The notes: a model not told the origin generated them from the letters alone. 40,000 nt of DNA from Oscillospiraceae bacterium (GCA_910575815.1 CAJTFN010000001.1:264507-304506), one strand, 5' to 3'; positions 6,306 through 25,180 are shown, counted from the first letter of the stretch. A program made the numbers and translations.

Positions 6306-6683
6306 ATGAGGATGATTAAGACCGAGAAACTAGGGGCGAACTGGCTCCGCCTGAATGGCTGGAAGCTGATGGCCCTGGCGATTGCGCTGCACGCTGCCCT
6401 GTTCCTGGGCCTGGCCTGGATGGGCAAGCCTCTGACCAGCTATGACGCGGATAATTACCGCTATGTGTTCAGCGCGCTGCTCCAGGTGGTGGGAGGACTT
6501 TTCGCCTTCATTGCCAGCAGCACCCTGGTGGTGCTACAGCTGCTGCACACCAACGCTCCTCACAGCGCCCGCTTCTACCCGAAGAACGTGTTCACCCTTT
6601 TCCTGGTGGACAACGTGCTGGTGCTGCTGTTAGACGCAATGGCAATTTTGATGCTGGAAACGGAGACAAGCCTCTGGAAGTGA
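6306..6683 (+). CDS. N-terminal fragment (125 aa, 3 TM helices) of a membrane-protein gene interrupted by the integrated element
   Basis: The ORF ends ...ETETSLWK followed by TGA. That TGA (6681-6683) is the first triplet of the lower-GC inserted DNA. The frame continues at 24302 (see findings). Confidence 0.55.
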   Translation: MRMIKTEKLGANWLRLNGWKLMALAIALHAALFLGLAWMGKPLTSYDADNYRYVFSALLQVVGGLFAFIASSTLVVLQLLHTNAPHSARFYPKNVFTLFLVDNVLVLLLDAMAILMLETETSLWK

Positions 6684-6690
6684 ATCACAG
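6671..6690. other. putative attL junction
   Basis: cctctggaAGtgaatcacag: host coding sequence up to AG, element sequence after it. Confidence 0.45.
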
Positions 6691-6955
6691 TTAAAGATAT
6701 CATTACAACGCAGTAAACAGCCCACACTTATAAATTATTTCAAATTTACGTAAACACTTTAATTGAATTATACAAGCAGTAGAACAAAACCGAATCGTTA
6801 CCATACCGTCTTCATTTGCATCCGCAGCAGCAGGCATCCACTTAATCCCTTAGACAGGCGGGAGGAATCGCTCAAAATTGTCTTCTTGCTTAAGGGGAAG
6901 GCTGAGTACTGTACCCCGAAAGAACAGTTCTGGTGCTACATAAATTAAAACAACA

Positions 6956-6996
6956 GCCTCATGGATCAGGTATCTTTATACCGACATCCATGAGGC
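6956..6996 (-). terminator. terminator downstream of the tail operon (hairpin usable on both strands)
   Basis: 11-bp perfect stem GCCTCATGGAT (6956-6966) / ATCCATGAGGC (6986-6996). On the minus strand it is followed by TGTTGTTTTAATTTA. It lies about 100 nt after the last tail gene. Confidence 0.45.
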
Positions 6997-7093
6997 CATT
7001 ATTTCCGATGAGTGATTCAGAGCAATACAGCAGCAAATGTCTGTCTATTCTCTTATCATAAACAGGGATTTTCTCAAAAACGCCTATGACAAG

Positions 7094-7660
7094 TTACTTT
7101 TTATGGACAACGCACCTATTCTCGAACATTCCCCAGGTCGTCCAATCATCATGGAACCACCTCCACGTCAGTCCAAGTTCTTCCACATCCGCCCACGTAG
7201 AACTGGAAATCACAAAACGCAGATGGGCCGGTTTCACTTGCTCCACAACGGAATAGATTTCCGACACATCAATATCCGCAAATTCGTCTTTTTCCCCCAA
7301 GAGTTCTAGTGAAAAGCTGTCATCGCCACGAACCATCACGCGGGCTGAATACCCTGTGATATGTTCTGCCAGCTCTTGAATCATTTTCTCGGTGGTATTA
7401 CCACAAGCAATCAACTGCTTTTGGATGGCCGCACGTCTGGCAGTTTCGCTCATTGACTTGTCCGTTCGCAACCCTACTTGCGTTTCCCAGGATTCCAGAC
7501 TCCAGGTAGCCGTGTTTACAAAAAACTGATCCAGCACATCCTCCAGGGCTTCCTTTACCGCAAGGCTGGCGTCCGTCAAGGTCTCCATGATTGCTCTGCT
7601 TTCCGGTGAAGCATAGTGATACTCCGGCACTTGCTCCCTCTTTGGCAGGGTTTTTCTCAT
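7094..7660 (-). CDS. phage tail protein, XkdU/YmfQ-like (DUF2313)
   Basis: The ORF track starts at 7795, but the ATG at 7660 forms an ATGA overlap with the upstream baseplate J stop. Product MRKTLPKREQVPEYHYASPESRAIMETL... has a Trp/Thr-rich C-terminus. Its position after baseplate J matches PBSX-like modules. Confidence 0.7.
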   Translation of the reverse strand: MRKTLPKREQVPEYHYASPESRAIMETLTDASLAVKEALEDVLDQFFVNTATWSLESWETQVGLRTDKSMSETARRAAIQKQLIACGNTTEKMIQELAEHITGYSARVMVRGDDSFSLELLGEKDEFADIDVSEIYSVVEQVKPAHLRFVISSSTWADVEELGLTWRWFHDDWTTWGMFENRCVVHKK

Positions 7661-8751
7661 GTGCCACCCCCAGTCTGCGTAACAGAAATTGTTCCAACGA
7701 CCGGCGCGTCCTCTGCCCGGATCACAACAGACGACATCTGGCCATCTACCGTGAAAGCACTGTAATCCGCTACGCCGGGACAGCGCAGTAAACAAGCTAA
7801 AAAACGGCTGAAGGGTATCACGATTTCTTCTCCGAATTTCTGGCTGCTCAGCAGTTCTCCCACCAATGTTTCTAACTGGACTCTTACTTGCTCCGTTGTA
7901 TACCCGTCCATTAATGTCACAGACGCGGTCAATGGAATCCTCCGTTCTTGGGCGCTGACGACGGTGACTACAGCACCAATGGGGCGTTCCTCTTCAATAT
8001 GGAACGCACATGCGGAGCGAGTAGACTCATCGACAGCTTTTCGATTTGGACCCGCAATTACCACCTTCACAGTACCATTTCCATTCCAGAGGGGGACACA
8101 ACTGGCATAAGACACTCCATCCGTTTCTGTGGCCCAGGTGACATAGTGATTTTTGTTCCCGGAGGTAATGGGCAGGGTACGACGGTTATGGTATCTGCTG
8201 TAAAAATCTGCGTCGCTTTCTACATCAGCGCCGCCAATGGCGGCTGTCGGATTATTCACACTCTTTACTCCAGCAACATTTGTGTACATAGAGGTAATGG
8301 AGTCTGCCGGAATGTTGTATTCTGTGCCAACTTCTGCGGCTTCTGCCCTTGCTTGTGCGGTTCCTTTCACAATTCTTACATCTTCTGTGGTCAAATATCG
8401 CAGCCCGGTTTCCGGGGCATAGAGATTGGTCCCTGCCGGAATGTAAGTCCCCTCTGTTCCAGTAAAGGACATTATAACGGCTGCCTTTTTACCGGTTCTT
8501 CGAAACATACCGATCTGCGCCGCATGTTTGTCAATGTACTCTCCGGCGTTCTCATCCGGAAATACCACAGACAACAGCTTGGGAAACTGCTGATATAGTT
8601 TGAAAATTTGATAGGCCGCCGTACTGACCAGCGTATTGGTATAGGAGCCCTCTCGTGTATCAATAAGAACTCCTTCCTCGTTTAATTCAGACAGCATCTC
8701 CGCTTTGATACTCTCCGGGGTTATGCTGTCATAAGGTGATGTCACAGCCAT
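7657..8751 (-). CDS. baseplate J-like protein (XkdT-like)
   Basis: 364 aa; N-terminus ...ITPESIKAEMLSEL...REGSYTNTLVSTAAYQIFKLYQ... is typical of the Baseplate_J family. Synteny supports the call. Confidence 0.85.
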   Translation of the reverse strand: MAVTSPYDSITPESIKAEMLSELNEEGVLIDTREGSYTNTLVSTAAYQIFKLYQQFPKLLSVVFPDENAGEYIDKHAAQIGMFRRTGKKAAVIMSFTGTEGTYIPAGTNLYAPETGLRYLTTEDVRIVKGTAQARAEAAEVGTEYNIPADSITSMYTNVAGVKSVNNPTAAIGGADVESDADFYSRYHNRRTLPITSGNKNHYVTWATETDGVSYASCVPLWNGNGTVKVVIAGPNRKAVDESTRSACAFHIEEERPIGAVVTVVSAQERRIPLTASVTLMDGYTTEQVRVQLETLVGELLSSQKFGEEIVIPFSRFLACLLRCPGVADYSAFTVDGQMSSVVIRAEDAPVVGTISVTQTGGGT

Positions 8752-9163
8752 CCATACTTACCTCCCCATAAACAGTTGTCATTCTAAAGCTCATATGCAG
8801 ACAAGAGGCCTCAAAAGAGAGCCCCACCTGCGTTACATCGGCGATATACGGATTGACCTGTAAGGTTTCTCGAATTGCGCGAATGGCCTCGGACTGGCGG
8901 ACCTCTTCTGTGCAGGCTTGTCCCAGCAGTCCGCTGAAATCCAGTCCACAGCCGGAACTAAGCACATCGTGAGCAAATCGCTCTGTATGTAAGGCGTTCC
9001 ATGCCCAAACCAGAACCGCTCTGGCACCGGAAACAAAAACCGGGTTTCCTCCCCGCCACACCGGACAGTTCGTCTGAAAGTTCCAGTCCACCTCTCGGTA
9101 CACGGGAAGGCCGGTTCCCTGCGTAATGCCATCCGGCGTGTCAATCAATGGAAATAGGCTCAT
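8729..9163 (-). CDS. baseplate wedge protein, XkdS-like (DUF2634)
   Basis: 144 aa; contains ...VLVWAWNALHTERFAHDVLSSGCGLDFSGLLGQ..., resembling the DUF2634/gp25-neighbour family. Overlaps both adjacent genes. Confidence 0.65.
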   Translation of the reverse strand: MSLFPLIDTPDGITQGTGLPVYREVDWNFQTNCPVWRGGNPVFVSGARAVLVWAWNALHTERFAHDVLSSGCGLDFSGLLGQACTEEVRQSEAIRAIRETLQVNPYIADVTQVGLSFEASCLHMSFRMTTVYGEVSMDGCDITL

Positions 9164-9614
9164 CGTATACTTTCACCAGCCTTTCCAAAAGGTAATAGGT
9201 CTGCCCATCCGGAGACCGCAGAAGGAGGACAGTATCGCCTTCCTTCAATGGGGTCTCATGGATAATCTCCGCCTCCTTTGGAGTCGTTCCCTCTACTGAT
9301 TCCTCGGGGTAAATCACCCACGCGTCCCCCGTCGAAAGGCTGCAATGGCATTCTCCGTGGAGCTGTTTATAGGGAAGCTTCACCGATACGGGCCACGCAA
9401 GGCCGATCAGACGTTCCGTCCACCCTGCCGTCAGGTGTTCCGCGATAAAAAGGTCTTCCTGATCCAGATCCATTCCATCGGCGCGGACAACCAATGGCCG
9501 GACCGACAGCACTTGACCAACCGCGTAGTAATTAGGCACTTCTCTTTGGACTTGGCTTCGAATATGAGCATTCAGTCCAAGGAAAGGGTCCCTTGCATTT
9601 TGCTCTCTCATCAT
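9141..9614 (-). CDS. baseplate/spike-associated protein, XkdR-like (DUF2577)
   Basis: 157 aa; C-terminal ...GDTVLLLRSPDGQTYYLLERL motif. Lies between the XkdQ-like and XkdS-like genes. Confidence 0.6.
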   Translation of the reverse strand: MMREQNARDPFLGLNAHIRSQVQREVPNYYAVGQVLSVRPLVVRADGMDLDQEDLFIAEHLTAGWTERLIGLAWPVSVKLPYKQLHGECHCSLSTGDAWVIYPEESVEGTTPKEAEIIHETPLKEGDTVLLLRSPDGQTYYLLERLVKVYDEPISID

Positions 9615-10585
9615 ACCTCGCTTCCCGCCGACGCTGCTGCCATAACATTCCGGCAGTTCAGCGTCAGCTTTGTATAATAGTCATGATGTTTCCAGGTATG
9701 GATATCGGCGTCAATCCAAAAGATACCCGCCAATCCGGTCTTGGCCTCTTTTACCACAACCGTTTCTCCGGTCAGCAATGAGAGATCTCCTAAAACATTC
9801 ACCGTGACGGTCTTCTGGACTTTTCCGTTTTCCAGAAGTTTCCTGGCACTGGCATCCGCCCCAGCACTTTCATTCTCTCGCTGAATAATGTGGCGTTCCA
9901 TAACACCGTAGAGCTTTTGTGCCTCATCATCACCCATTTTACGGAGCAAGTTCCCATTTGTATCATAAATCGCCACACGGTTTATGATCCTCGCAGCGTC
10001 TTCTTTGGTCACCGCGTCCATCAGGTTTGAAGAAGTCCTCAACACTAAACTGGAACCGCCGGCATCCCGCTCCTTCACCAAAAGCCCCTCCGGCGTGTAT
10101 CGAATCGCGTAGGACTTTCCAGTCTTCTCACCAGTCAATGTCCAGGCTGTGGTTATGATTTGGCTTAAACGCACCGCGGCATATTTTCTCCGCAGAGGAA
10201 TCCCCGTAACTGGCAGCCCCGCCACCGGAATCTCCCGATCCTTGCAAACCGCCTGCGTCTGTGCCTCCGCGGCAGCGCCGGTAAATTTATAGGTGCCATC
10301 GTTCTGCTGCAAATAATAGCCATAGTCAAAAGCGGTAAACGATAAAGTGCTGGATTCGCTGCCCAAACTCCTCAGCAGAATAATCCCCACAAACAAGCGC
10401 TTCCCGTCATTGACCATCGTCACCACATCCCCCAGGGCGGGGACAGGCAAATTGCCGCCCTCCACATAGGAAATCTCCCCGGTCAGCTGCCTGGAAATCG
10501 AAGCCTTATCACCAGACCAGTTCCAGGAAACCATCAGCTCCGTGACATCTCGTGTACTTGTGCCATGGGTCATAAGGAGCTTCAT
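9611..10585 (-). CDS. tail/baseplate hub protein, XkdQ/YqbQ-like (late control D-like)
   Basis: 324 aa; follows the LysM protein with a 4-bp overlap. The order matches PBSX xkdP-xkdQ. Confidence 0.7.
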   Translation of the reverse strand: MKLLMTHGTSTRDVTELMVSWNWSGDKASISRQLTGEISYVEGGNLPVPALGDVVTMVNDGKRLFVGIILLRSLGSESSTLSFTAFDYGYYLQQNDGTYKFTGAAAEAQTQAVCKDREIPVAGLPVTGIPLRRKYAAVRLSQIITTAWTLTGEKTGKSYAIRYTPEGLLVKERDAGGSSLVLRTSSNLMDAVTKEDAARIINRVAIYDTNGNLLRKMGDDEAQKLYGVMERHIIQRENESAGADASARKLLENGKVQKTVTVNVLGDLSLLTGETVVVKEAKTGLAGIFWIDADIHTWKHHDYYTKLTLNCRNVMAAASAGSEV

Positions 10586-11244
10586 GCGAACACCCCCAGC
10601 AGAACGGATTCCGGCGGAATGCGTAAAAGCGTTCCCGGATAGATCAAATGAGGATTCTTGATCTCATTAAACGCCGCTAGGGCATTATAGTACTCCGCAG
10701 AGGACTTCCCATAATACCGCCGGCAAATAATAGACAAGGTATCCCCCTTCGCAACTGCCACCGACTGCTCCTTCTCTCCGTTCCCCAACGCATCCCCTGG
10801 CCGGGTGCTGTTTTGCGCGGCGGTATTGGGATTTGTTGTCTCCACCGCCCCCAGTTCCACATACTCCCGAACGGAGACGGTGACATAGCGGTCCCCGGTT
10901 CCGTCCCGCTCCTCCTGTGCGGCCTCTTCCATGTATACCAGCGCGTTGATTTCCGTACCGGTGATCACCAGCCGCACGGGCTTGCCGTCCTTCACCCAGG
11001 CATTGAAATAGTCCAAATAGTACTGCGGCTCCGCCCGTGCGCCAGCCTCCATCCATGGATAAGACTGGGCGGGAAGCAAAAACTCGAAGCTCCCGGCGAA
11101 CCGTGACCGTCCGCCGGGGCGGTACACATCTCCCAGCTGGCTGATGTTAATGGTTTCCATCCGCCGTCCATTGCTCCATTTATAGCGTCCTGGCGTCACC
11201 GGCATTACCAGGGACACGCCGTCCCGAATGAAACAAAACTGCAT
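10582..11244 (-). CDS. LysM-domain tail protein, XkdP-like
   Basis: 220 aa; C-terminal LysM-like segment VAVAKGDTLSIICRRYYGKSSAEYYNALAAFNEIKNPHLIYPGTLLRIP. Confidence 0.8.
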   Translation of the reverse strand: MQFCFIRDGVSLVMPVTPGRYKWSNGRRMETINISQLGDVYRPGGRSRFAGSFEFLLPAQSYPWMEAGARAEPQYYLDYFNAWVKDGKPVRLVITGTEINALVYMEEAAQEERDGTGDRYVTVSVREYVELGAVETTNPNTAAQNSTRPGDALGNGEKEQSVAVAKGDTLSIICRRYYGKSSAEYYNALAAFNEIKNPHLIYPGTLLRIPPESVLLGVFA

Positions 11245-11248
11245 CTCG

Positions 11249-13282
11249 TTACCCCCTCATTCCCGCCAGCTCCATCTGGGCCAGCAGTTCCGAGGCCACT
11301 CTGGAGATGTCGGCCTCTTCTCGGACAGTAAAGCTGTTTCCGGTAATCGTAATCGCAGGCATCGTGCGTTCGCTCCTGGCTTCCACCGCGGTCTGCACCC
11401 GCTCTCCCTGGTGGAGCAAGGCCGGGAAGTTATCGTATGGTACATAGTCCAGGCCATAGGCATACAGTCCAAGCTCCTTGAGGGTTTCCAGCCGTTGAGC
11501 ATCCTTCTTTGCTTCTTCCGGCGTAAGGTGCTCCACGATTTCAAACCCAGTCCCCCGTGTAAAAGCGTTGCTCATCGTGTAAGCATTGGTAACCGCTTCC
11601 AGCTTTTTTGTATTTTCCCGGATTGCCTCGATCTGGTCCAGCTCCGTATCCTGCATAGTCTGATACCAGCCGCTGGATTCATAAGCGGCTGTTGCCAGAG
11701 CCTCTGCCTCTTCTTTCAGGGCCTCCATCTTCAGTCCAGCCTCCTGACTGCCGTTTTCATAGACTTCGGAAGCTTCTTGGAATTGCTCCCGCAGACCCTC
11801 CAGCTTTTCTGCGTCCTCAGGCTGGAATACCGTAGTCTTATCCCCCAGCACCAGGGCGCTCAATGCCTCCCGCTGGAACTGCTCCGACAAATTCTCCGAG
11901 ATCGCTTTATTCTCACCGATCACTGCGTTCAGCTTCTCCAGGGCATTGCCCAGCTCCCCGCCATAAGCGGCCTGTTCCGCCTGTAGTCCTTCCTTGCGCG
12001 TTTCATTGTAGGACGCGCCCCCGGCGGCGCTGATTGCTGTTTTCGCGTCCTCCACATTGCTTACCAGTGCGTCATAAGTGGACGCCAGTTTTTCGGACAG
12101 GCCGCCGAAGCTCTGCTCCATGTAGTCCAAAACCGCTTGGGCCGCTTCGCTGCCGGAGAAGCCGTCCCCAACGTTCGTCTCCATGCCAGCCGCCTTTCGT
12201 GCCTGTGCGATCTTGTCCAGTACCTGATTGACGTCTGCCCCGCTCCCGGAGAGGAAATTCAGGTCCTCCTGCGTAACCCTTTCGGAAGACTGCATCCGGC
12301 TGAGATTGGAAAGCAGCGTTTGGAATCCGGATTCATCCAGGTTCAGCCCCTCCATTGCGCCGGACAGCTTTTGAAGCGCGCCGATTGCTCCATCCGCGCC
12401 GAAACTGTTCAGAAGGGTCTTGGAGTAGCCGGTGAGCTGGTTGAAGGTGTAATTGCTGGAACTAGCCAGGGACTTCACGCTCTCCAGGTACTTTCCAGCG
12501 GCCTCGTTCCCTCCCAGCCTCTGGGCAAGGACCGCCTGCGTCTGTTCCCGGTCCCTGCTCACCAGGGAACCGCCGGTGATGGTATTCTCTGTGTTGGAGG
12601 ATACGGTTTCGTAAAGGCTTTTGTAGTAGTCTTTGAAAGCATCCTCCTTTGCTTCTACAATTTTAGTAACACTGCTGATGGCTCCAGATACCACTCCGAT
12701 TCCCCCGCCTATCAAAGCACCTGTAGGGCCGAAAATTGCGCCAGCCGCTGCGCCGTTTAAAGCTCCGGAAGCTATGCCGGATATAGCAGAGGCCGTCTGC
12801 TGGCCGAACTGGCTGGTCAGGCCGGTATTGAGCAGCCCCGATACGCTGTTGCTTAAGTCTCTAAAAATCCCTGAAGCATTGAGACCTTTTTTTAATGCAT
12901 CAGTACTAGTCGTTCCTATGCCCGACGAATTACCAGCCGAATCAAAGGCATCTCCCGTTTTCATCATCTGCTTTTCCACATTGGCAGCTTCCTTTGTGAC
13001 CAGAGAGAGATTCCGCCGTGCTTCCTCAAAAGTAAGCTGCTTTCCTTGCAAAATCAACTCATCAATCACATCTCCTGTTGACGCAAATTGTTTTTCTGCG
13101 GCCATAAGACTTTGTTTAGCCTTGTCTGTATCTACTTTCAGAGAAGCCTTTGTTTTATTCAGCGTATCTAGCCTTTTTTGCAGGCCATCCAAATCCTTTG
13201 TGAAAAGCTGACTGGCATCCCGCATCTTTTTCATTGCGTTTACAAAACTGTCCGATGATTGGACGATGGATGTTTCAGGCAT
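11249..13282 (-). CDS. tail tape measure protein
   Basis: 677 aa, long helical and Ala/Glu/Leu/Gln-rich, with a glycine-zipper hydrophobic block GAAAGAIFGPTGALIGGGIGVVSGAISS. Located between the chaperone and baseplate genes. AGGTGG RBS. Confidence 0.8.
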   Translation of the reverse strand: MPETSIVQSSDSFVNAMKKMRDASQLFTKDLDGLQKRLDTLNKTKASLKVDTDKAKQSLMAAEKQFASTGDVIDELILQGKQLTFEEARRNLSLVTKEAANVEKQMMKTGDAFDSAGNSSGIGTTSTDALKKGLNASGIFRDLSNSVSGLLNTGLTSQFGQQTASAISGIASGALNGAAAGAIFGPTGALIGGGIGVVSGAISSVTKIVEAKEDAFKDYYKSLYETVSSNTENTITGGSLVSRDREQTQAVLAQRLGGNEAAGKYLESVKSLASSSNYTFNQLTGYSKTLLNSFGADGAIGALQKLSGAMEGLNLDESGFQTLLSNLSRMQSSERVTQEDLNFLSGSGADVNQVLDKIAQARKAAGMETNVGDGFSGSEAAQAVLDYMEQSFGGLSEKLASTYDALVSNVEDAKTAISAAGGASYNETRKEGLQAEQAAYGGELGNALEKLNAVIGENKAISENLSEQFQREALSALVLGDKTTVFQPEDAEKLEGLREQFQEASEVYENGSQEAGLKMEALKEEAEALATAAYESSGWYQTMQDTELDQIEAIRENTKKLEAVTNAYTMSNAFTRGTGFEIVEHLTPEEAKKDAQRLETLKELGLYAYGLDYVPYDNFPALLHQGERVQTAVEARSERTMPAITITGNSFTVREEADISRVASELLAQMELAGMRG

Positions 13283-13297
13283 TGTCCACCTGCTTTC

Positions 13298-13326
13298 TTG
13301 ACAAATATTGTTAACTGCTATATACT
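13298..13326 (+). promoter_or_regulatory. near-consensus sigma70-type promoter pointing against the tail operon
   Basis: TTGACA (13298-13303), a 17-nt spacer, then TATACT (13321-13326). Confidence 0.5.
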
Positions 13327-13336
13327 AACTTAAAAA

Positions 13337-13548
13337 AGGAGGGAATCTGTTATGATGTGGGATGATTTTTGGCGTGAAATCCGTCAGTATTTCCAAGAGA
13401 ATCCTATGATCAAATTTGCAGCAATATTGGCATGTGTTTTCCTTGTAATTGCTGTGCTTATGCTTCTTACTCAGGCAATTTAAGGCTGCCGAGGCTATGT
13501 AGGAGGAATCTATTATGATGTGGGATGATTTTTGGCGCGAAGTCCGCC
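13337..13548 (+). repeat. direct repeat of the peptide gene's RBS and first 11 codons (copies at 13337-13385 and 13501-13548)
   Basis: aggagggaatctgttatgatgtgggatgatttttggcgtgaaatccgtc versus aggagg-aatctattatgatgtgggatgatttttggcgcgaagtccgcc: 4 substitutions and 1 indel. The second copy opens an 18-codon ORF (13515-13571). Confidence 0.8.
13352..13483 (+). CDS. 43-aa single-TM peptide (MMWDDFWREIRQYFQENPMIKFAAILACVFLVIAVLMLLTQAI)
   Basis: Below the ORF-track length cutoff and found by reading the sequence. AGGAGG (13337-13342) lies 9 nt before the ATG, and the promoter is 25 nt further upstream. Acidic/aromatic N-terminus followed by one hydrophobic helix. Confidence 0.5.
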   Translation: MMWDDFWREIRQYFQENPMIKFAAILACVFLVIAVLMLLTQAI

Positions 13549-13758: not shown

Positions 13759-13778
13759 TTCCCCGTCGCCGCCGTCCT

Positions 13779-14183: not shown

Positions 14184-14200
14184 ATGCTCCTCCTATCTCC

Positions 14201-14242: not shown

Positions 14243-14254
14243 CGAGTAATTTCC

Positions 14255-14683: not shown

Positions 14684-14696
14684 ACAAATTCCTCCT

Positions 14697-17086: not shown

Positions 17087-17962
17087 ATGGAACAACTGCT
17101 TCCGCCTCTCAGCGGTGAGCAGTTTTCTTCTTTAGAGAGTGACATCCTGGAAAACGGCTGCTACGCTCCAATCATCGTCAACGAGGATATGACCGTCATA
17201 GACGGGCATAATCGTTTTCGAATCTGCGAAAAACACAATCTTTCATTTACAATGCTGGTATTTTCGTTCGCCGATCTGCTTGAAGCCAAGCAGTGGGCAG
17301 TGGATACCCAAAAGGGCCGCCGCAATCTGGATAAGTGGGAATTAGGCAAGATCGCGCTGAAGCTGAAACCGGAAATCGAGGCCAGGGCACGGGCCAATAT
17401 GTCCGCTGGGGGCGGCGACCACAAGAGCGATAGTGTGAAATCGGGTTTGGTGAATTCACCAAACCCGATTTTGCCTGTGGATACCAGGAAGGAAGCGGCC
17501 CTGGCCGTAGGAATCGGAGAACAGACCATGGGCAGGGTCGCACAAATGGCGGAAACCGCGCCCCAGGCCCTGAAAGACGCGCTGGACAGGAAAGAAGTGT
17601 CCATTAACAGGGGCTGGAAAATCCTGAAAGCGGTTCGGCAGTTGCCTCTGGAAGAGCAGGAATCCGCCGCCGCCGAGATGCTGTCGGCTGTGCGGGAAAT
17701 TGACCAACTGGACGCTGAAGCGGAGCACAGAGGGAAAATCGCCAGCCTGTTCTGCAAAGCATATGAAAAAGCTGTTCTTCTGACTCCTACATTGGAAAAT
17801 GTTCGCATTTGGGTAGAAAACACCCGCATGAGGCCGGATGAGATCGAGGGCGCTATGCGGGAATCTTATGAACTGGCCCAGACGTTTCAGGCCATTGGAG
17901 ATTTGCTCAAAAATGAAGTTCTGCATGATTGTCAACAGGCTGTACATCCAGATAGAGCTTGA
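17087..17962 (+). CDS. ParB N-terminal domain (ParB/Srx-like) protein
   Basis: 291 aa; ...LLPPLSGEQFSSLESDILENGCYAPIIVNEDMTVIDGHNRFRIC... fits the ParB-like nuclease-domain pattern (DGHNR). The only good RBS (GAAGGAG, 17012-17018) lies upstream and the frame is open from there, so the start may be earlier and non-ATG. Confidence 0.65.
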   Translation: MEQLLPPLSGEQFSSLESDILENGCYAPIIVNEDMTVIDGHNRFRICEKHNLSFTMLVFSFADLLEAKQWAVDTQKGRRNLDKWELGKIALKLKPEIEARARANMSAGGGDHKSDSVKSGLVNSPNPILPVDTRKEAALAVGIGEQTMGRVAQMAETAPQALKDALDRKEVSINRGWKILKAVRQLPLEEQESAAAEMLSAVREIDQLDAEAEHRGKIASLFCKAYEKAVLLTPTLENVRIWVENTRMRPDEIEGAMRESYELAQTFQAIGDLLKNEVLHDCQQAVHPDRA

Positions 17963-18149
17963 GCGGATAAGACTATGGACAAGGGGGTTATGTATGCACA
18001 CCCAGCCTCCGTTTTTTGAGGATGCAGGGTAGGAGCAGGTGCATACATATGCCCCCACCATCGAAGCAAAGACTGTCCGCCAAATCATCTGGACATTACC
18101 GGAACAGGCTGATATGATGTGGCCTACCCAATAACAGGAGGTACGCCCG

Positions 18150-18458
18150 ATGGAAGTAAGATTTTTCTTTGATAAAGCTGCAGCAGAGCGGCGCAGCTAC
18201 ACATTGGAGGCTGTGCATCAGACGATAAAAAGCCTGTTCGCCACCCACGACCTCCCCTGCGTCTCTGACGGAGATACCCTCGTCTTCAAGGATAAGGGTC
18301 ACGGCGATGACTTTGCCGTCATGTGGGATATCATCTTGTCCCTGCTGCGGACGAATTGGTTCATGGACTGCGCCGCTTCCTGTGTTTGGCGGGACGAGGA
18401 TGGTGAGGAAGACATACTCGCTCAGGCTGGGAAAGTAGGGAGCACCATGCGGCAATAA
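18150..18458 (+). CDS. hypothetical protein (102 aa, acidic)
   Basis: AGGAGG lies 7 nt before the ATG. I recognise no family. Confidence 0.5.
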   Translation: MEVRFFFDKAAAERRSYTLEAVHQTIKSLFATHDLPCVSDGDTLVFKDKGHGDDFAVMWDIILSLLRTNWFMDCAASCVWRDEDGEEDILAQAGKVGSTMRQ

Positions 18459-18516
18459 TCTGCGGTGGGCCGCAGCCCCCACCGGCCCAAATTTCAATCA
18501 CCCTACCACTGGAAAA

Positions 18517-18687
18517 GGCCCCGCTTCGGCGGGGTCAAAGCTCACGCCGACGGGGCGGCGTGAGCGCAAGCATCGCAAAAATGTACATTTTTATAGCTTG
18601 CAGGGGAACCCCCCTGTCCCCAATGCCGCCTGCGGGCGGAAATTTTGGGGAACCCCGCCGCAACCCAGCGAAGCGGTTGCGGTGGGG
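18517..18687 (+). other. oriT-like structured region upstream of the relaxase
   Basis: Stem-loops at 18517-18536, 18541-18564 (9-bp perfect stem), 18601-18616, 18626-18639 and 18653-18687 (13 bp). A perfect 16-bp AT palindrome AAAAATGTACATTTTT lies at 18577-18592. GGGGAACCCC occurs twice. Confidence 0.4.
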
Positions 18688-18797
18688 AGAGAAGGAAGGA
18701 ATGGAGCGGGCGGAGTTTTCGCCGACAGGCGGAAACACAGCGGAGCGGAATTTCTTCCGACGAGGCGGTCAAGAGCCGCGAAAGGAGTTGACGCAAC

Positions 18798-20201
18798 GTA
18801 GCTGTTACAAAAATTCTGGCAAGAAATACCCGACTGAATCAGGCCATTCAATATGTGCTGAATGGGGATAAAACCGACAGGCGGATCCTGACATACCACC
18901 AAAACTGTGACCCCGGCTTGGAGTACCGGGAGATGATGGATACCAAGCGGGCCATCGGAAAACTGGATGGCCGCCAGTGCTATCACATCGTCCAGTCCTT
19001 CAAGCCGGGAGAGGTTTCCCCGGAGCTGGCGCTGGAAATCGCAAAGGAATTCGCTGCTGAGTACCTGCCGGATTATGAGGTGGTCATCGGGACCCACGTT
19101 GACAAAAAGCACATTCACTCCCACCTGATATTCAATTCCGTGAATGCGCAGACCGGGAAAAAATATCACATTTCAACCCAGGAGTATTACCGTCAGATTC
19201 GGGCGATCTCGGAGCGGCTGTGCAGAGAACATGGGCTATCCGTGGTTATGGAAGGCCAGCCCTCCCAGACCGTCAGCTACATCGGATGGCTGCGGCAGTC
19301 CAAAGGCCAGCCGACCTTCCGCTCTATGCTGGAGGCGGACCTGCGGACCGCCATTGAGGACGCCAACGACCTGGGGCACTTTTTCATGCTTGTTGAGCAT
19401 ATGGGCTGGGAGATCAGCCACGGGAACCGCCTGGGCTTCCGTCTGCGGGGACAGGAACGATTTATGTACCCTGGACGTAAGAATCCATTGTTCACGGAGG
19501 ATGGTATCCGCGCCGCTATTGCGGGCAATCTGGAGGAAATTGAGGCCGGACGCCGACCGGAGGTGATTCACCGGCCTTACTATCAACCCTATAAAGAACA
19601 TCCGAAATACTCTGGATTTATGGCGCTGTATGTTCACTATCTCTACGTTTTAGGGAAAGTCGAAAAGCGTCAGTACCCTCCCCGAATGACGCCCCAGCTA
19701 CGGAAAGAAGTCATGCGCTTCGAGCGGTACAGAGAGCAATTTTCGTTTCTTCGGGAGAACAATATCGTCAGCCAGGAGGATATGACCGCTTTCCAATCCA
19801 GTGCAGAGGACGAGCTGGCCAATTTTATGAAGCAGCGCACAATCCTGAATGTGCGGAAAAAGAAGCGAAAAGGGCTGTATGACGCTCTGGCTGATGTAGC
19901 GGCTCTGGAGCAGGCGAAAGCGCTCTATGAGGAAGGGCTGTCCGGCATGGAAGCGGAGTTCTCCCGGTACATGGAGGCGGAAGCTGTTCTGGAGCGGAGC
20001 GGCGTTCCTCGGGAACAGCTCACAGCAGAGAAAGCAGCGATATACGAGCAGCTGGCACAGGTCAACGCCGACATCCGAACGGCGAGGAAGAAGCTGGCGC
20101 TGTGCAAGGAAATTCAGAACCGCCTGCCTCAGATGGAGCAGACAATCAGAAATATTGAATCCAGAGAAACGGAAATCCATGAGAAGCACAGAGGGCGGTA
20201 A
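18798..20201 (+). CDS. MobA/VirD2-family relaxase (mobilization nuclease domain); the conserved N-terminus lacks a canonical start codon
   Basis: The ORF track starts at GTG 18855. The frame is open from 18792 and encodes VAVTKILARNTRLNQAIQYVLNGDKTD..., a typical relaxase N-terminus. His-rich motif THVDKKHIHSHLIFNSVN is present. AAAGGAG RBS at 18781-18787. Confidence 0.8.
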   Translation, partial: VAVTKILARNTRLNQAIQYVLNGDKTDRRILTYHQNCDPGLEYREMMDTKRAIGKLDGRQCYHIVQSFKPGEVSPELALEIAKEFAAEYLPDYEVVIGTHVDKKHIHSHLIFNSVNAQTGKKYHISTQEYYRQIRAISERLCREHGLSVVMEGQPSQTVSYIGWLRQSKGQPTFRSMLEADLRTAIEDANDLGHFFMLVEHMGWEISHGNRLGFRLRGQERFMYPGRKNPLFTEDGIRAAIAGNLEEIEAGRRPEVIHRPYYQPYKEHPKYSGFMALYVHYLYVLGKVEKRQYPPRMTPQLRKEVMRFERYREQFSFLRENNIVSQEDMTAFQSSAEDELANFMKQRTILNVRKKKRKGLYDALADVAALEQAKALYEEGLSGMEAEFSRYMEAEAVLERSGVPREQLTAEKAAIYEQLAQVNADIRTARKKLALCKEIQNRLPQMEQTIRNIESRETEIHEKHRGR

Positions 20202-20327
20202 AACCGCCTCCTGTCGGCTTTTTAGGGCAATCTGAGTCCCTGACCGACTGAGACCACATAGGCCCACACGCCGCAACCTGTGGGCCGACACGGCAAAAAA
20301 GGAGTTAATGTATCTATGAAAAAATTA
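20124..20327 (+). repeat. direct repeat copy A (relaxase 3' end, hairpins, RBS and degenerate start of the next gene)
   Basis: Aligns with 22165-22368. The 51-nt core 20178-20228 differs from 22219-22269 at 2 positions. Confidence 0.75.
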
Positions 20328-20344
20328 TAAATCGCAAATCACGG

Positions 20345-20373
20345 TTGATATTTTAACTGTTTTGCGCTATAAT
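20345..20373 (+). promoter_or_regulatory. promoter of the AbiE cassette
   Basis: TTGATA (20345-20350), a 17-nt spacer, then TATAAT (20368-20373). Confidence 0.5.
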
Positions 20374-20398
20374 CAGTTTTACAAAGAAGGTGATATAG

Positions 20399-21163
20399 TT
20401 GAAGCATTATGAAAAGCTGCTGGAGCTCGGCTGTTTTTCACGCGGCAAAATTGCCGCGCTGCTTGGCAACGATGAAACAGCGGGTTCGCTGTTGCGGGAG
20501 TATCAGAAAAAGGGCTATATTGAGCGTGTCCGGCGCGATTTGTATGTTGTCATAAGCCTTGAGACAAAACAGCCGGTAGTATCCCGGTACCAGATCGGAT
20601 GTTCCGTTTTTGACGATGCCGTCATAGCCAATCACAGCGCCTTTGAGGTTTTCGGATTTGCAAATCAGGTGTTCTATGAGGTCTATGTCTGCACAGGTCA
20701 TCGCTTTCCCGACTTCCAGTACAACGGTGTCTCCTATCATCGTCTTGCGCCGAAAAGCAGCATTGACACTGTTTACAGCGGCGGCGTCCGTGTCACAAGC
20801 TTGGAACAGACTGTGATAGACAGCATCGCTGATTTTGAAAAATTTACCGGCCTGGAAGAGACGCTGCGCTGTATAATGCTGATCCCCTCTTTAGACGAGG
20901 GAAAACTCCTTTGCATTCTCGGTGAATTGGGTAACGGCTATCTTTGGCAGAAGTGTGGATATGTTTTGGAGGAATTGAACGGCATACTCCATCTTTCGCC
21001 CGAATTTTTTAAGGCTTGTCATGACCATATTGCAGGCAGTAAACGCGCTCTTTTGAAGGAAACGGTCGGACCGGTAATCTGGAACAGGAAATGGGATTTA
21101 TATGTCCCTGAATCTATACGCACTCTGACGGATAAGGGGGGAGATTTCCGTGATACAGTATGA
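20399..21163 (+). CDS. AbiEi-family antitoxin / transcriptional regulator (type IV TA)
   Basis: 254 aa with a TTG start after a GAAGGTGA RBS. N-terminal winged-helix-like segment ...LLREYQKKGYIERVRRDLYVV.... Overlaps and precedes an AbiEii-type gene. Confidence 0.7.
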   Translation: MKHYEKLLELGCFSRGKIAALLGNDETAGSLLREYQKKGYIERVRRDLYVVISLETKQPVVSRYQIGCSVFDDAVIANHSAFEVFGFANQVFYEVYVCTGHRFPDFQYNGVSYHRLAPKSSIDTVYSGGVRVTSLEQTVIDSIADFEKFTGLEETLRCIMLIPSLDEGKLLCILGELGNGYLWQKCGYVLEELNGILHLSPEFFKACHDHIAGSKRALLKETVGPVIWNRKWDLYVPESIRTLTDKGGDFRDTV

Positions 21164-22148
21164 CCGTATGACTCTTGGCCGTCAGGCAAAGGACCTTGGC
21201 TTTGTAAGGGATACCTTCGAGAAAGTATGCCGTCTTGCCGGTGTTCTCGACTTTATGGAGCAGGACATGGTTCTGAAAAATTCGCTTGCCCTGAAAGGTG
21301 GAACGGCGATCAATCTGACGATTTTTGACCTGCCGCGCCTGTCTGTGGACATAGACCTTGATTTTGCCGAAGCTCTTGGCCGTGTTGAAATGCTGGAAAA
21401 GCGCGGAGACATAGCAGAGTGCATCAGAAAATATATGAAGGCGCACGGCTATACGCTCAGCGAAAAATCGAAAAAATACCACGCCCTGGACTCCTTTGTT
21501 TACGAGTATCAAAACGCCGGAGGCATGAGAGATAACCTGAAAATTGAAATCAACTATATGCTGCGCTGCCACATACTTGATGTCAGTCGCAGAATGGTAA
21601 AGCTACCTTGGCTCAGCCAGGAACTGACAGTTTTGTGTGTCGCCCCAATCGAAATATTTGCGTCAAAAATCGTGGCTCTGATGAACAGGGCCGCGCCCCG
21701 TGACCTTTACGATTTCCACAATATGATTTACTTCGGCCTGTTCGATGAAAGGGCGCTGGAACTGCTGCGAAAGAGCGTGGTATATTATAACGCCATCGGC
21801 TCGGATGAGACTCCAACATCATTTTCTTTTGATTCTATCCGCGCAATCACGCAGAACCGGATCAAAACCGAACTGTTGCCTGTGTTGCGAAACAGCCCTT
21901 TCTTCGATGTCAAGGCAGCACAGGGCGAGTGTATCGACTACCTGACGCAGCTGCTTAATCTGACTGACAGGGAGTACGAGTTTCTTCGCTTGTTCAAGGA
22001 AAAGCAGTATCAACCAGTCCTTTTATTTGAAGACGCCGATATTCTGTCGCGTATCTCTCAGCATCCTATGGCGCTATGGAAGTGTATGAAGGAGGCAGAA
22101 AAAGATAAACCCAAGGCGCCGAAACATAAAAACGGACCGGAACGATGA
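21150..22148 (+). CDS. AbiEii/AbiGii-family nucleotidyltransferase toxin (DUF1814)
   Basis: 332 aa; NTase-type motifs LKGGTAINL and RLSVDIDLDF. 14-bp overlap with the upstream gene. Confidence 0.8.
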   Translation: MIQYDRMTLGRQAKDLGFVRDTFEKVCRLAGVLDFMEQDMVLKNSLALKGGTAINLTIFDLPRLSVDIDLDFAEALGRVEMLEKRGDIAECIRKYMKAHGYTLSEKSKKYHALDSFVYEYQNAGGMRDNLKIEINYMLRCHILDVSRRMVKLPWLSQELTVLCVAPIEIFASKIVALMNRAAPRDLYDFHNMIYFGLFDERALELLRKSVVYYNAIGSDETPTSFSFDSIRAITQNRIKTELLPVLRNSPFFDVKAAQGECIDYLTQLLNLTDREYEFLRLFKEKQYQPVLLFEDADILSRISQHPMALWKCMKEAEKDKPKAPKHKNGPER

Positions 22149-22164
22149 ACCAAATCATGTTAGC

Positions 22165-22368
22165 CCGCCCCGGATGGCGCAGATAATCGAAAAAACTGAA
22201 TCCAGCGAAATTAAAAACCATGAGAAGCACAGGGGGCGGTAAAACCGCCTCCTGCCGGCTTTTTAGGGCGGTCCGCATCCCTGGACCCATAAGGCCCCAC
22301 AGACCCACACACCGCCCCGTGTGGGCCGACACGACAAGAAAAAGGAGGCAATGCCTATTAAAAAATTA
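22165..22368 (+). repeat. direct repeat copy B, containing a 25-codon relic of a relaxase 3' end
   Basis: Reads PPRMAQIIEKTESSEIKNHEKHRGR-stop, against LPQMEQTIRNIESRETEIHEKHRGR-stop at the end of the intact relaxase. Confidence 0.75.
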
Positions 22369-22572
22369 AACCGCAGTCTGACCGACCAGGTGTTTGGGAT
22401 CGGTCGATATCGGTGTTCAAAAGATGGACAATTATACTTCATCCATGGAAAAACCCGTATTAAAGTTACAGAACATTTCCCCGCGGACGGAAATCCCCTG
22501 CACACGCTGCTGGAGGATGTGATTCAATTTTCCGCCAAACAGGAAGACGAAAAGAACCGTCCGGCCTGTTAG
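22351..22572 (+). CDS. small protein preceding the recombinase (TnpW-like, tentative)
   Basis: ATG at 22351 follows AAAGGAGG. 73-aa product MPIKKLNRSLTDQVFGIGRYRCSKDGQLYFIHGKTRIKVTEHF.... Its position and size resemble small ORFs found next to large serine recombinases in clostridial mobilizable transposons. Confidence 0.4.
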   Translation: MPIKKLNRSLTDQVFGIGRYRCSKDGQLYFIHGKTRIKVTEHFPADGNPLHTLLEDVIQFSAKQEDEKNRPAC

Positions 22573-22655
22573 GGAAAAGCGCTGGATATCCGCCCACGCT
22601 TGTGGTATTGTGGTGCCGTAAGCGTGGGTTGTTTCAACCAAAGGAGGGTCGATTT

Positions 22656-24245
22656 TTGAAACAACCGATTTATAACACAGCGCTCTACCTCAGACTCAGC
22701 CGTGACGATGAGCAGCAAGGTGACAGCGGCAGCATCCAGACGCAGCGCATGATGCTTCGGGACTACGCCCAGACCCATGGTCTCAACATAGTGTCCGAGT
22801 ACGTGGACGACGGCTGGTCCGGCACGAATTATGACCGCCCCGGCTTCCAGAAGATGATTGATGACATTGAGGATGGAAAGATAAACTGCGTAGTCACCAA
22901 GGATTTATCCCGTCTGGGCCGCAATTACATCATGACAGGCCAGTATACGGAAATCTACTTTCCCAGCAAAGGTGTCCGCTATATCGCCGTCAACGACAAT
23001 GTGGATACGTTGAACGGCGAAAGTGAGCTGGCCCCGTTCCTGAATATTCTCAACGAGATGCACGCTCGCCAGACCAGCAAGAAGGTAAAGGCCGCTCTGA
23101 AAGCCCGCCGGATGAACGGCGCTCACATCAGTTCGTTTGCCCCATTGGGCTATCGGTGGGATCCGGAGCAAAAAGGGCACCTGCTGGTAGACCCGGAAAC
23201 GAAGTGGATTGTTGAAAAGATTTTTGACATGTCCTATCACGGAATGGGGGCGGCGAAGATCATGAAGGCGCTGATTCGAGAGCAGGTTCCAACTCCTGGG
23301 TGGATACATTACTCCAGAGAGGGTGCTTACTCGCACATCTACCAAAACGCACCTGAAAAAGTGCGGTACGCATGGAACGAAACGAAGATTAGGCTCATTT
23401 TAACAGATGAGAATTATCTTGGCAACAGCATTCACAATAAAACGTCTGTCAAATCGTTCAAACTGAAAAGGCAGACCAGAAATCCCGCCTCAGAATGGAT
23501 TCGCGTGGAAGGAACTCATGAGGCCATCATCAGCAAGGACGTGTTTGACCAAGTCCAGCGGCAGATCGCCAGTCGCCGCAGGCAGCGCAGGGACGGCACG
23601 ACACAGATATTCGCTGGTCTGGTCAAGTGCGCGGACTGTGGATGGACTATGCACTTCGCAAGGCAGAACAAGGGTAACCATCCCGGATATTTCTCCTGCG
23701 GTACCTACAGCAAAAAGGTGGACGAGTGTACCATGCACTTTATCAGCTACAACACGCTGTACGCCTATGTTCTGGAACGGCTGCAGTTTTGGTCGTCTAT
23801 GGCGCAGAAGGATGAGCGGCAGCTCTTGGAACGGCTTCTCCAAAGCGGCGGTGAAAACCGGGCCGCTGAGCGAAAAAAGCAGGCATCTGAACTTCGAAAG
23901 GCCGAAAAACGTAAAAGTACCGTTAACGGTCTTTTTGTGAAGATGTACGAGGACTGGTCAGCGGGGCGTATCACGGAAAGCAATTTCAACCTTCTGTCTG
24001 AGCGATACCAGGCGGAACAGGCAGAATTGGATGATAAGATTGCTGCCCTGAAATTGGTCATGGAAAACGCCAAGCAGTCTGTGGAGGACGCTGAGAAGTG
24101 GGTCAAGCTCATCCGGCAGTATAGTGACATCGTTGAGCTAGATGCCCCACTGCTCAATACCCTGATTGAAAAGATCGTAATCCATGAGGCGACGAAAAGC
24201 CCGGACGGCATCCGGGAACAGGAAGTGGAGATTTTTTACCGCTAA
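22656..24245 (+). CDS. large serine recombinase (integrase)
   Basis: TTG start at 22656, 7 nt after AAGGAGGG (the track starts at 22602). N-terminal resolvase motif ALYLRLSRDDEQ...SIQTQR. Recombinase domain and Cys-rich zinc-ribbon region KCADCGW...FSCGTY. C-terminal coiled coil. Confidence 0.9.
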   Translation: MKQPIYNTALYLRLSRDDEQQGDSGSIQTQRMMLRDYAQTHGLNIVSEYVDDGWSGTNYDRPGFQKMIDDIEDGKINCVVTKDLSRLGRNYIMTGQYTEIYFPSKGVRYIAVNDNVDTLNGESELAPFLNILNEMHARQTSKKVKAALKARRMNGAHISSFAPLGYRWDPEQKGHLLVDPETKWIVEKIFDMSYHGMGAAKIMKALIREQVPTPGWIHYSREGAYSHIYQNAPEKVRYAWNETKIRLILTDENYLGNSIHNKTSVKSFKLKRQTRNPASEWIRVEGTHEAIISKDVFDQVQRQIASRRRQRRDGTTQIFAGLVKCADCGWTMHFARQNKGNHPGYFSCGTYSKKVDECTMHFISYNTLYAYVLERLQFWSSMAQKDERQLLERLLQSGGENRAAERKKQASELRKAEKRKSTVNGLFVKMYEDWSAGRITESNFNLLSERYQAEQAELDDKIAALKLVMENAKQSVEDAEKWVKLIRQYSDIVELDAPLLNTLIEKIVIHEATKSPDGIREQEVEIFYR

Positions 24246-24290
24246 ACAATATTTTATGGTACATCCCTAACTATGATTAACGGAGGCAGG

Positions 24291-24310
24291 TTTTTCTGGA
24301 GTACACCATA
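24291..24310. other. putative attR junction
   Basis: tttttctggAGtacaccata: element sequence up to AG, host coding sequence after it. Confidence 0.45.
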
Positions 24311-25180
24311 ACCTTCAATCTGTATCCGATGGTTTTGGCCTTTGTGTACATCTATTATGTCATCCGGTATCTGACGCCGGAGTATCAGGCCGCCCACATC
24401 CTCCGCCAGGCGGAACGGGCGAAGGACAACGAGGAGCGGCGCCTCGTCCTGTATTCGCTGGAAGAGATGATGCTGACGTCGGTCCAGGCCGGTCAGGGCG
24501 GAAACGTCCGTCTGTACCAGGACGCCTTTTCAGACATCATCGCCATTTACGCGCACACGAAGGAGGAGCTGAACGCCGGCAGCCAGTGGGAGCCCGAGAA
24601 TCCCCTGCGGATGCTCCCGGACGTCATCGAACGGATTACCGACAGCCTGATAGACCACGGTATGCGGAATCTGCTGCACTTCAACGGGCACATTCTCCGG
24701 GAGCTCAGCGGAGCCAGCTACCAGGGAAACGCGGTTGTAGGAGTGGAAATTGCCGTGGCAGTGGAGCACATCGCCACCTCGTGCCTGGAGCGTTCCTGCG
24801 TCATCGATCTGACCAATTTCTGTGCAAACTTCATCTGGTGCGCCGACGAGGAGGACAACATCGACACCATCCTCTGGGGGACCCGGCTGCTGCTGGAACG
24901 GCTGAGCGACGACCCGTCTCCGGCGGAGATTACAGTGTTTAACAGCGTTGTGGGGGACCTGCGCCGCCTGATGGAGGAAAATGAACTTGAGGACGGGTTC
25001 CGGTACCGGCAGATGGCCGCCTATTTGAAGAGCCGGAAGAAGCTCATTCAGGCCTGTGTGGAATCCGGGCAAAACTACGCGGAAAAAGGCATTTCGGAAA
25101 TTCAGAAACTGGTAGACCAGAAATACAGCCCGCCGGGTCGAAACAAGGACAGAGCAAACAAGACTTCCGCCCCTTCCTGA
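24302..25180 (+). CDS. C-terminal fragment (fourth TM helix plus a soluble domain of about 270 aa) of the interrupted membrane-protein gene
   Basis: The frame is open from 24281. The track's ATG at 24329 has no RBS and would start inside a TM helix (MVLAFVYIYYVIRYL). The frame is contiguous with 6306-6680 if the element is removed. Confidence 0.55.
   Translation, partial: YTITFNLYPMVLAFVYIYYVIRYLTPEYQAAHILRQAERAKDNEERRLVLYSLEEMMLTSVQAGQGGNVRLYQDAFSDIIAIYAHTKEELNAGSQWEPENPLRMLPDVIERITDSLIDHGMRNLLHFNGHILRELSGASYQGNAVVGVEIAVAVEHIATSCLERSCVIDLTNFCANFIWCADEEDNIDTILWGTRLLLERLSDDPSPAEITVFNSVVGDLRRLMEENELEDGFRYRQMAAYLKSRKKLIQACVESGQNYAEKGISEIQKLVDQKYSPPGRNKDRANKTSAPS

Follow-up and report, generated by a model that had tools for sequence, protein, structure and literature searches.

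A 17.6-kb element with an integrative mobilizable backbone and phage tail genes as cargo interrupts a membrane-protein gene in an Oscillospiraceae bacterium

The DNA considered here is a 40,000-nucleotide stretch from an Oscillospiraceae bacterium (GCA_910575815.1 CAJTFN010000001.1:264507-304506), hereafter referred to as the window, in which positions are counted from the first letter. Our studies indicate that positions 6679-24284 of the window, 17,606 bp, represent an element of a known kind, a real and well-delimited insertion with an unusual cargo. It appears to be a member of a family of integrative mobilizable elements (IMEs) of gut Clostridia, in which a variable cargo slot would lie between the left terminus and the conserved backbone and is here apparently filled by a 9.2-kb myophage tail module extending from terminator to baseplate. 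We propose that a DUF4368-type large serine recombinase, encoded at the right end of the element (22656-24245), joined the attachment site of the element (attP) with a chromosomal site (attB) located in a gene of an Oscillibacter species for a 420-aa protein with four transmembrane (TM) segments. Crossover at a GA dinucleotide would have created the junctions attL (6677-6678) and attR (24283-24284), cutting the gene in the loop before TM4, and the tail module would have been captured at some time in the past of the element and now be carried along with it. We place the probability of this reading as a whole at roughly 85%. The coordinates of the features are given in Table 1.

The boundaries were established by comparison with five metagenome contigs (L001-L004 and L007), in which the 420-aa gene is uninterrupted and has the synteny of the window. 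These empty sites read ...CCTCTGGAGGCAGGTTTTTCTGGAGTACACC..., all five having GAGACAAGCCTCTGGAGGCAGGTTTTTCTGGAGTACACC. Homology of the window to the empty sites ends at 6678 and restarts at 24282, and the overlap of attL and attR consists of GGA only (6676-6678 and 24282-24284), which defines GGA as the shared core and gives the limits and length of the insert. The restored protein reads ...SLWRQVFLEYTITF... at the junction, identical to the intact protein P0001, and the intact homologs read SLWRQVFLEY. An earlier note on this DNA had instead proposed an AG(T) core, based on a join that removes positions 6681-24301 and leaves a continuous 417-codon open reading frame (ORF). Its observations were accurate: ctc tgg aag tga closes the ORF at 6306-6683, on the right side the sequence is ttctggagtacaccataacc (...ggtttttctggagtacaccataacc...), the frame of the ORF at 24329-25180 opens at 24281, directly behind a TAA (24278-24280), and the calculated fusion is indeed continuous. 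However, this deletion of 17,621 bp overshoots by 15 nt, taking out 15 bases that are present in all five empty sites (GGCAGGTTTTTCTGG) and giving SLWK-YTITF, a sequence that drops RQVFLE and changes R to K, so that the 417-aa product is not the restored protein. The empty-site junction does not match the attB that had been predicted from this join, an outcome that the note itself had named beforehand as refuting, and with it the AG(T) core falls. The error is explained by a direct repeat within attB (cTCTGGAg and tTCTGGAg, a CTGGAG repeat), the second copy of which had been aligned, and the false join was in frame because 15 is a multiple of three. An in-frame rejoin is thus no proof of a junction, as short repeats in attB can yield a false, frame-preserving core. 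The TGA of the left ORF, moreover, is not the first triplet of the insert, which starts two bases earlier, at the AG of aAG. A 6-nt core, TCTGGA, was also wrong, the empty-site overlap being GGA.

Comparison with the intact alleles leaves the membrane-protein gene as one that is truly split by the insertion. A search with the rejoined protein matched P0001 (420 aa, full coverage, beginning MIKTEK) and about 30 further homologs of 393-428 aa, so that uninterrupted homologs exist in relatives, and none of these proteins ends near residue 125. The gene order common to the window and L001-L004 is Bmp, ABC transporter, two permeases, DUF1622, the split gene, aminotransferase, AraC and DctPQM; L007 constitutes the fifth empty site. 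Intact 420-aa alleles were found on dozens of contigs with the source name Oscillibacter sp., and fragments of 123 aa and 283 aa on fewer. Occupied and empty alleles are both present in the population, coexistence within one sample not being demonstrable. The split gene has an alternative start at 6306, six bases upstream of the start corresponding to that of P0001, and the translation of its right part, RQVFLEYTITF..., agrees with P0001. Hydropathy analysis confirmed that three TM segments lie in the left piece and that a fourth bridges the two pieces once rejoined, as had been noted from the window. The left piece would gain a lysine residue and a stop codon from element DNA, and the right piece has no start signals, no purine-rich ribosome-binding site being present upstream of the ATG at 24329, as also noted earlier; the gene is therefore most likely inactivated. 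An AlphaFold model of the protein was confident (pLDDT 88) and shows four TM helices and a helical-repeat domain. The protein had no Pfam, NCBIfam or PDB sequence match, and a Foldseek search against the PDB returned only generic designed or TPR/ARM-like repeats (E>0.009). The DUF1622 membrane-protein gene (5841-6299), a neighbor in all empty-site contigs, stops 6-12 bp ahead of the start of the split gene. The two probably constitute one operon, and the insertion may therefore also have a polar context.

Both ends of the insert are also supported by related elements found elsewhere. All relatives with a recombinase of 91-92% identity end in an identical 27-bp sequence, ...GGTACATCCCTAACTATGATTAACGGA, followed by different flanks. 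Over eight independent insertions the P arm is identical and the flanks then differ, which is independent confirmation of the right boundary; the window-proximal part of this terminus differs. At the other end, about 90 bp are homologous to the left end of L016, a relative of 79% identity, marking the left boundary as a genuine family terminus. The left ends of the L008- and L024-type relatives lie outside their 10-kb flanks, leaving L016 as the sole second attL. Both ends of L016 are contained in one locus, where attL reads ttgaGGA followed by TGTAAATC and attR reads tttacGGA followed by ACTGATAG, with GGA only in common. The interval in the window is AT-richer than its surroundings, as previously remarked (GC 0.46-0.57 vs 0.57-0.62 in the flanks).

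The crossover dinucleotide is likely GA rather than GG, judging from the symmetry of the reconstructed attP, CCCTAACTATGATTAACG-GA-AGTGAATCACAGTTAAAG. This site forms an imperfect inverted repeat around GA, in which 16 of 24 arm positions are complementary, relative to an element background of 6.0±2.2. Only 4 of 17,556 element positions reach this dyad score, and with GG as the center the score of attP falls to 5/24. The chromosomal site reads ...AAGCCTCTG-GA-GGCAGGTTT...; the sequence spanning attB is GCCTCTGGAGGCAGG and that spanning attP is ATGATTAACGGAAGTGAATCA. A central GA is always required in the target of TndX of Tn5397 (PMC4430133), and recombination of Tn4451 occurs at 2-bp identical sequences, without a directionality or accessory factor (PMC5704250). 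The recombinase itself matches PF00239 (9e-25), PF07508 (8e-21) and PF13408 (3e-13), plus PF14287, and its N-terminal serine motif, YLRLSRDD, can be read directly. These recombinase domains, together with a very short core containing a non-palindromic dinucleotide and an attP in the form of an imperfect inverted repeat, are the features of a large serine recombinase system. Homologs of the protein number in the thousands, and a defined attP/attB pair, core and termini are now provided for this abundant, uncharacterised clade of DUF4368-type recombinases in gut Clostridia; the pair lends itself directly to testing in vitro or to use in an integration tool. One member of the recombinase 90% cluster, P0181 (774 aa, from an ENA contig), has the first ~500 recombinase residues fused to an FtsX-like permease C-terminus and may represent a chimeric assembly or a rearrangement.

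Table 1. Positions of the interrupted gene, the element and its parts in the window (tail genes in order of transcription)
Feature	Coordinates	Strand	Basis or remark
5′ part of interrupted host gene (four-TM membrane protein), B arm of attL	6312..6678	+	99.4-100% identity to intact gene in L001-L004 up to 6678
Likely GA crossover dinucleotide at attL	6677..6678		inside GGA 6676-6678; attP dyad centered on GA
Left terminus, P′ arm, terminal inverted repeat AGTGAATCACAGTTAAAGATAT...	6679..6770		~90 bp homologous to L016 left end; inverted repeat of right terminus
Cargo: 12 intact contractile-tail genes	7094..16293	-	Pfam and PHROG matches
Terminator-like	15769-16293	-	
Sheath	14697-15782	-	
Tube	14255-14683	-	
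XkdN-like chaperone (pair)	13779-14183 plus 13513-13758	-	
Tape-measure-like	11249-13282	-	
LysM	10582-11244	-	
YqbQ-like	9611-10585	-	
DUF2577	9141-9614	-	
Sheath initiator	8729-9148	-	
Baseplate J	7657-8751	-	
Mu Gp48-like	7094-7660	-	
Conserved family backbone	16757..24284	+	72-86% nucleotide identity to L008-L015, L016, L023-L026, L029
ParB-like protein, 291 aa	17087..17962	+	PHROG ParB-like matches; 73% aa identity to L008 305-aa ORF
Conserved 102-aa ORF	18150..18458	+	73% aa identity to ORFs in L008 and L016
Conserved non-coding GC-rich stem-loop region, putative origin of transfer (oriT)	18480..18645	+	conserved in four-element alignment, upstream of mobC
Unrelated 153-bp sequence in place of relatives' mobC	18645..18797		four-element alignment
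MOBP-type relaxase gene	18798..20201	+	Pfam PF03432, 8.9e-38; NCBIfam MobP-type matches all below cut-off
AbiEi/AbiEii toxin-antitoxin (abortive infection) pair	20399..22148	+	Pfam PF13338 and PF08843
Large serine recombinase, 529 aa (Resolvase + Recombinase + Zn ribbon + DUF4368)	22656..24245	+	Pfam
Right terminus, P arm ...GGTACATCCCTAACTATGATTAACGGA	24246..24284		terminal 27 bp identical in window and seven relatives' insertions
3′ part of interrupted host gene (end of TM3-TM4 linker, TM4, helical soluble domain), B′ arm of attR	24285..25180	+	99.4-99.7% identity to intact gene from 24282

A second insertion site indicates that the backbone and its cargo belong together. In two further samples (L071 and L072; runs SRR31560102 and SRR17406699) the left terminus and tail module, 99.8% identical over 7 kb, are joined to a different flank, the junction reading ...CCTATCCGAATTTGTC, then GGA, then AGTGAATC (L071 1-68, L072 1-63; exact-protein look-ups), and the empty form of this site is present in six contigs (L075-L080) as ...TTTGTCGGA followed directly by CGCGGACCTGTCCCTGGTGCCC. 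Because the same tail-carrying element occupies a second site, the composite appears to move as one unit, and the cargo must have been acquired before that, in an event of its own. The earlier proposal that the whole interval is a single unit inserted by the recombinase at 22656-24245 is upheld by these data, by the genuine termini, by a failure to detect internal att-like sites in the element at up to 4 mismatches and by restoration of the 420-aa gene upon its removal. An alternative is that two events occurred, in which a mobilizable element of ~7.5 kb and a prophage fragment inserted independently, nested or in tandem, and that the 17.6 kb are not one unit. This would accommodate the different origins and opposite gene orientations of the two halves, the AT-rich gap that separates them (16293-16757), and the finding that relatives of the tail module are complete phages, whereas relatives of the backbone lack tail genes. 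We nevertheless regard it as improbable, as the tail module occupies the cargo slot of the family, flanked by a true family terminus on the left and, on the right, by the backbone boundary that relatives share (16757), its association with the left terminus recurs beside the different flank of L071 and L072, no internal att-like sequence separates the halves, and neither a phage integrase nor remnants of neighboring phage genes are found in the window. Searches of window positions 15000-17200 by tblastn and blastn gave no second recombinase.

The gene occupied at the second site encodes 297 aa (L078 2040-2933) and is flanked by genes for a DUF3991/Toprim protein and for a sortase, which is the context of a conjugative element. 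The same gene family provides the right flanks of four relatives (L024, L025, L026 and L031), at the same position in homologous genes; Pfam assigned no family to this common target. On the evidence of these flanking sequences, the common target of the element family is a gene carried on conjugative elements, and the membrane-protein gene of the window is a further target. Recombinases of 91-92% identity are associated with at least four different targets, and the 79% relative with a fifth. One recombinase lineage has a preferred site in a gene of conjugative elements and also uses a chromosomal membrane-protein gene, which bears both on the spread of these elements and on the inactivation of host genes. 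The 79% relative, L016 (2716-2970, 11655 onward), occupies the HEPN member of a nucleotidyltransferase/HEPN gene pair, beside genes of conjugation type (AAA_10/TraG-like and peptidase M23), and is another case in this family of an element sitting inside another mobile element.

The backbone is related at the DNA level to metagenome contigs (L008-L016) and to Oscillospiraceae, Flavonifractor and Oscillibacter genomes (L023-L031), and in relatives that reach that far (L008, L009, L016 and L024, plus L029) the homology starts at window 16757-16763. By definition, an IME codes for an integrase of its own and has att sites with short direct repeats at its borders (PMC5704250), as is the case here. 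The same definition calls for a relaxase and/or oriT and for a lack of mating-pore genes, features found in full in L008 and L016; the element in the window has a PF03432 relaxase gene and the conserved oriT-like region, with mobC absent and the relaxase ATG lost. The putative oriT was assigned by its position, which is that of oriT in MOBP7 IMEs (PMC12084326). Type IV secretion system or coupling-protein domains were not detected in any ORF of the element. Insertion within genes, with their disruption, is known for IMEs that use serine recombinases (PMC5704250). The AbiEi/AbiEii cassette is flanked by direct repeats of ~206 bp (20122-20327 and 22163-22368, 80% identity), and L023-L026, which lack the cassette, have about one repeat-length of sequence at this position, suggestive of gain or loss of the cassette through the repeats.

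The remaining part of the element, the cargo, has the same gene order as complete myophage contigs from IMG/VR (L036-L053), at 36-82% aa identity. In those contigs large ORFs, which by length alone would suit terminase, portal and capsid, precede the tail genes, and small ORFs, a holin and a 264-aa ORF follow them. Neither head, fiber or lysis genes nor remnants of these neighbors were found in the window, and the element, including its stretch 6679-7094, has no ORF for a fiber, holin or lysin. Of the genes expected in a prophage, it thus has those for the tail and none for terminase, portal, capsid or lysis; of those expected in an R-type tailocin, it has sheath, tube and baseplate, with a fiber or receptor-binding protein and a lysis cassette not found. 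By gene content, then, the module is a neatly cut-out myophage fragment that makes up neither a whole phage nor a whole tailocin. Relatives of the element carry other cargo, namely a ResIII helicase and N6/N4 methylase (a restriction-modification-type pair) in L008, and a 523-aa ORF and DUF1835 in L016.

These findings bear on a third possibility, that of a defective prophage, in which the recombinase is the phage integrase, the phage has lost most of its genes and the relaxase/AbiE block intruded afterwards. Phages commonly use large serine recombinases as integrases, and twelve tail genes have remained intact. Such an origin is nonetheless highly improbable, given that the recombinase, P arm, relaxase, ParB-like gene and oriT-like region occur in the same order and are conserved as a set in many elements without tail genes, and that the fetched loci of L036-L053 gave no tblastn match at E<=1e-5 to the recombinase or the backbone proteins. 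At the DNA level, phage and plasmid collections matched only fragments of the relaxase (18980-19534) and recombinase (22667-23096) genes, the phage matches being confined to two unverified "Bacteriophage sp." contigs. These two contigs from human feces (MT838297.1 and MT835878.1) match the relaxase and recombinase genes only and are themselves probably mobilizable elements. Among these phage records, L035 encodes a 540-aa DUF4368 recombinase (1194-2816) beside a Mob-like ORF.

The least tenable alternative is that of the earlier note, a prophage-like intervening element with AG(T) crossover (6680/6681 x 24301/24302), a 417-aa protein and a reversible, possibly developmentally timed switch: it could draw on the mechanical in-frame join, the recombinase at the right end, the phage tail genes and the presence of both occupied and empty alleles, but its core and 417-aa product are refuted, on sequence grounds, by the 15 extra bases of all five empty sites and the SLWRQVFLEY of the homologs, its prophage nature conflicts with the missing head, fiber and lysis genes and with a relaxase-type backbone shared with tail-less elements, and it is further opposed by occurrence of the element at a second locus, and of close relatives at several others, and by a host gene having no known function or link to sporulation. 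Precise reversal of the proposed reaction at GA would restore the gene, as in any insertion by a serine recombinase, and this property is no evidence of a switch. No excised circle was found in the collections scanned, and this copy has decayed in mobC, the relaxase start and the recombinase end; nothing supports a regulated switch or regulated excision. The comparison with skin and SPbeta that had accompanied the switch proposal extends to a large serine recombinase element that splits a coding gene and whose precise excision would restore it. Those elements are prophage-derived, tied to sporulation genes and excised in the mother cell, in contrast to the integrative mobilizable type of backbone (relaxase, oriT-like region) and the several loci of the present family, in which head, fiber and lysis genes were not found.

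Insertion of an IME-family element by its own recombinase is the reading that we retain, and several observations have to be set against it. No tblastn match to the MobC of L008 or L016 was obtained in the window. In relatives mobC sits directly upstream of the relaxase gene, the native ATG of which is GTA (18798) in the window, with a stop codon ahead at 18789. The first canonical start, GTG at 18855, lies just past the conserved tyrosine codon (18852) in AIQYVLNGDKT, a motif which we take to resemble relaxase motif I of RP4 TraI. The window copy may thus have lost the ability to be mobilized by the relaxase that it encodes; the same mobC-less sequence and relaxase start are present in an independent assembly (L081). 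In addition, the recombinase lacks the last 7 residues (FAGKIDI) of its 536- to 540-aa relatives. The responsible 21-bp in-frame deletion, at window 24241 relative to L006 203-223, is the only difference from L006, which represents the same site, over 24062-24284, and it makes the present-day activity of the recombinase uncertain. With mobC, the relaxase ATG and the recombinase C-terminus lost, it is less likely that this copy can still be mobilized or excise readily. Neither the viral contigs nor the metagenome collection that was scanned contained a match to an excised circle or attP junction, and the empty sites fit sites that were never occupied and sites from which the element was excised alike. 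Finally, the choice of GA over GG was decided by attP symmetry only; the symmetry of attB is weak and slightly favors TG.

Among characterized elements, a matching architecture is that of IME_Rho_tet of gut Bacillota, which likewise has variable cargo on the left, followed by mobC, a relaxase and a terminal large serine recombinase, has inverted-repeat termini of ~21 bp, often resides in small genes of conjugative elements and is hosted by gut Clostridia (PMC12904643). This comparison concerns architecture only. The cargo of IME_Rho_tet is tet(W)/tet(32), rather than tail genes, and its right boundary is 81-90 bp past the recombinase stop codon (PMC12904643), as compared to 39 bp here and ~41 bp in the L008-type relatives. 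Tn4451 and Tn4453 are also mobilizable, use a large serine recombinase (TnpX) with a 2-bp crossover and no directionality factor, and show low to moderate target specificity, as the present element appears to do, but Tn4451 has a MobV-type relaxase (TnpZ) instead of the PF03432/MOBP type and carries catP (PMC5704250). The best match among plasmid records was 66% (Subdoligranulum), the others being at or below 37%, which does not place the element within the Tn4451/Tn4453 group. Tn5397, via TndX, similarly has strongly preferred and secondary sites and inserts inside genes (PMC4430133); it is a 21-kb, self-conjugative, Tn916-like element, whereas no mating-pore genes were found here. The MOBP7 IMEs of Faecalibacterium share a PF03432 relaxase, have mobC and oriT immediately upstream of it and are often nested in conjugative elements (PMC12084326), and differ from the window copy with respect to its missing mobC and relaxase start codon, integrase types being outside this comparison. 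The tail module in turn resembles PBSX-like tail modules and R-type tailocins such as diffocin in its xkdK-to-xkdU-like order of sheath, tube, chaperone, tape measure, LysM, YqbQ, DUF2577, gp25-like, Baseplate J and Gp48-like genes, while differing in its location within a recombinase-driven mobile element and in that no fiber or receptor-binding protein, holin/lysin or regulator was found.

The question arises of whether the tail genes still serve a purpose. The module could be a working mobile contractile-tail cassette, either a fiber-less tailocin core completed in trans by fibers and lysis functions or a "tail-donor" satellite, which could complement or exploit resident phages as a mirror image of capsid-forming satellites. 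In favor of this are the 12 full-length genes, 99.8% conservation of the module between two insertion sites and the synonymous nature of 4 of 6 substitutions (in the baseplate J and sheath-initiator stretch, L072 vs the window). On present sequence evidence we consider a working cassette unlikely. We found no report in the literature of a phage tail module that travels inside a mobilizable element, and, if functional, this one would link conjugative hitch-hiking with phage-tail weaponry.

Some minor features deserve mention. A 51-nt direct repeat (86% identity; 13342-13392 and 13505-13555) is present between the tape-measure gene and the second chaperone ORF, and in this region a 1-nt indel at 13578 distinguishes L071 from the window. 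The 102-aa ORF at 18150-18458 had no Pfam or NCBIfam match, and promoter and terminator scans of 6600-7200 and 16200-17200 were not usefully above shuffled expectation. Within the ParB-like gene, a perfect 34-bp palindrome (AAATCGGGTTTGGTGAA followed by TTCACCAAACCCGATTT) at 17438-17471 is translated in frame (KSGLVNSPNPI); the assemblies of ERR2868784, a run that contains the occupied allele, break at this palindrome, and L016 has a looser palindrome around GAATTC at 6658.

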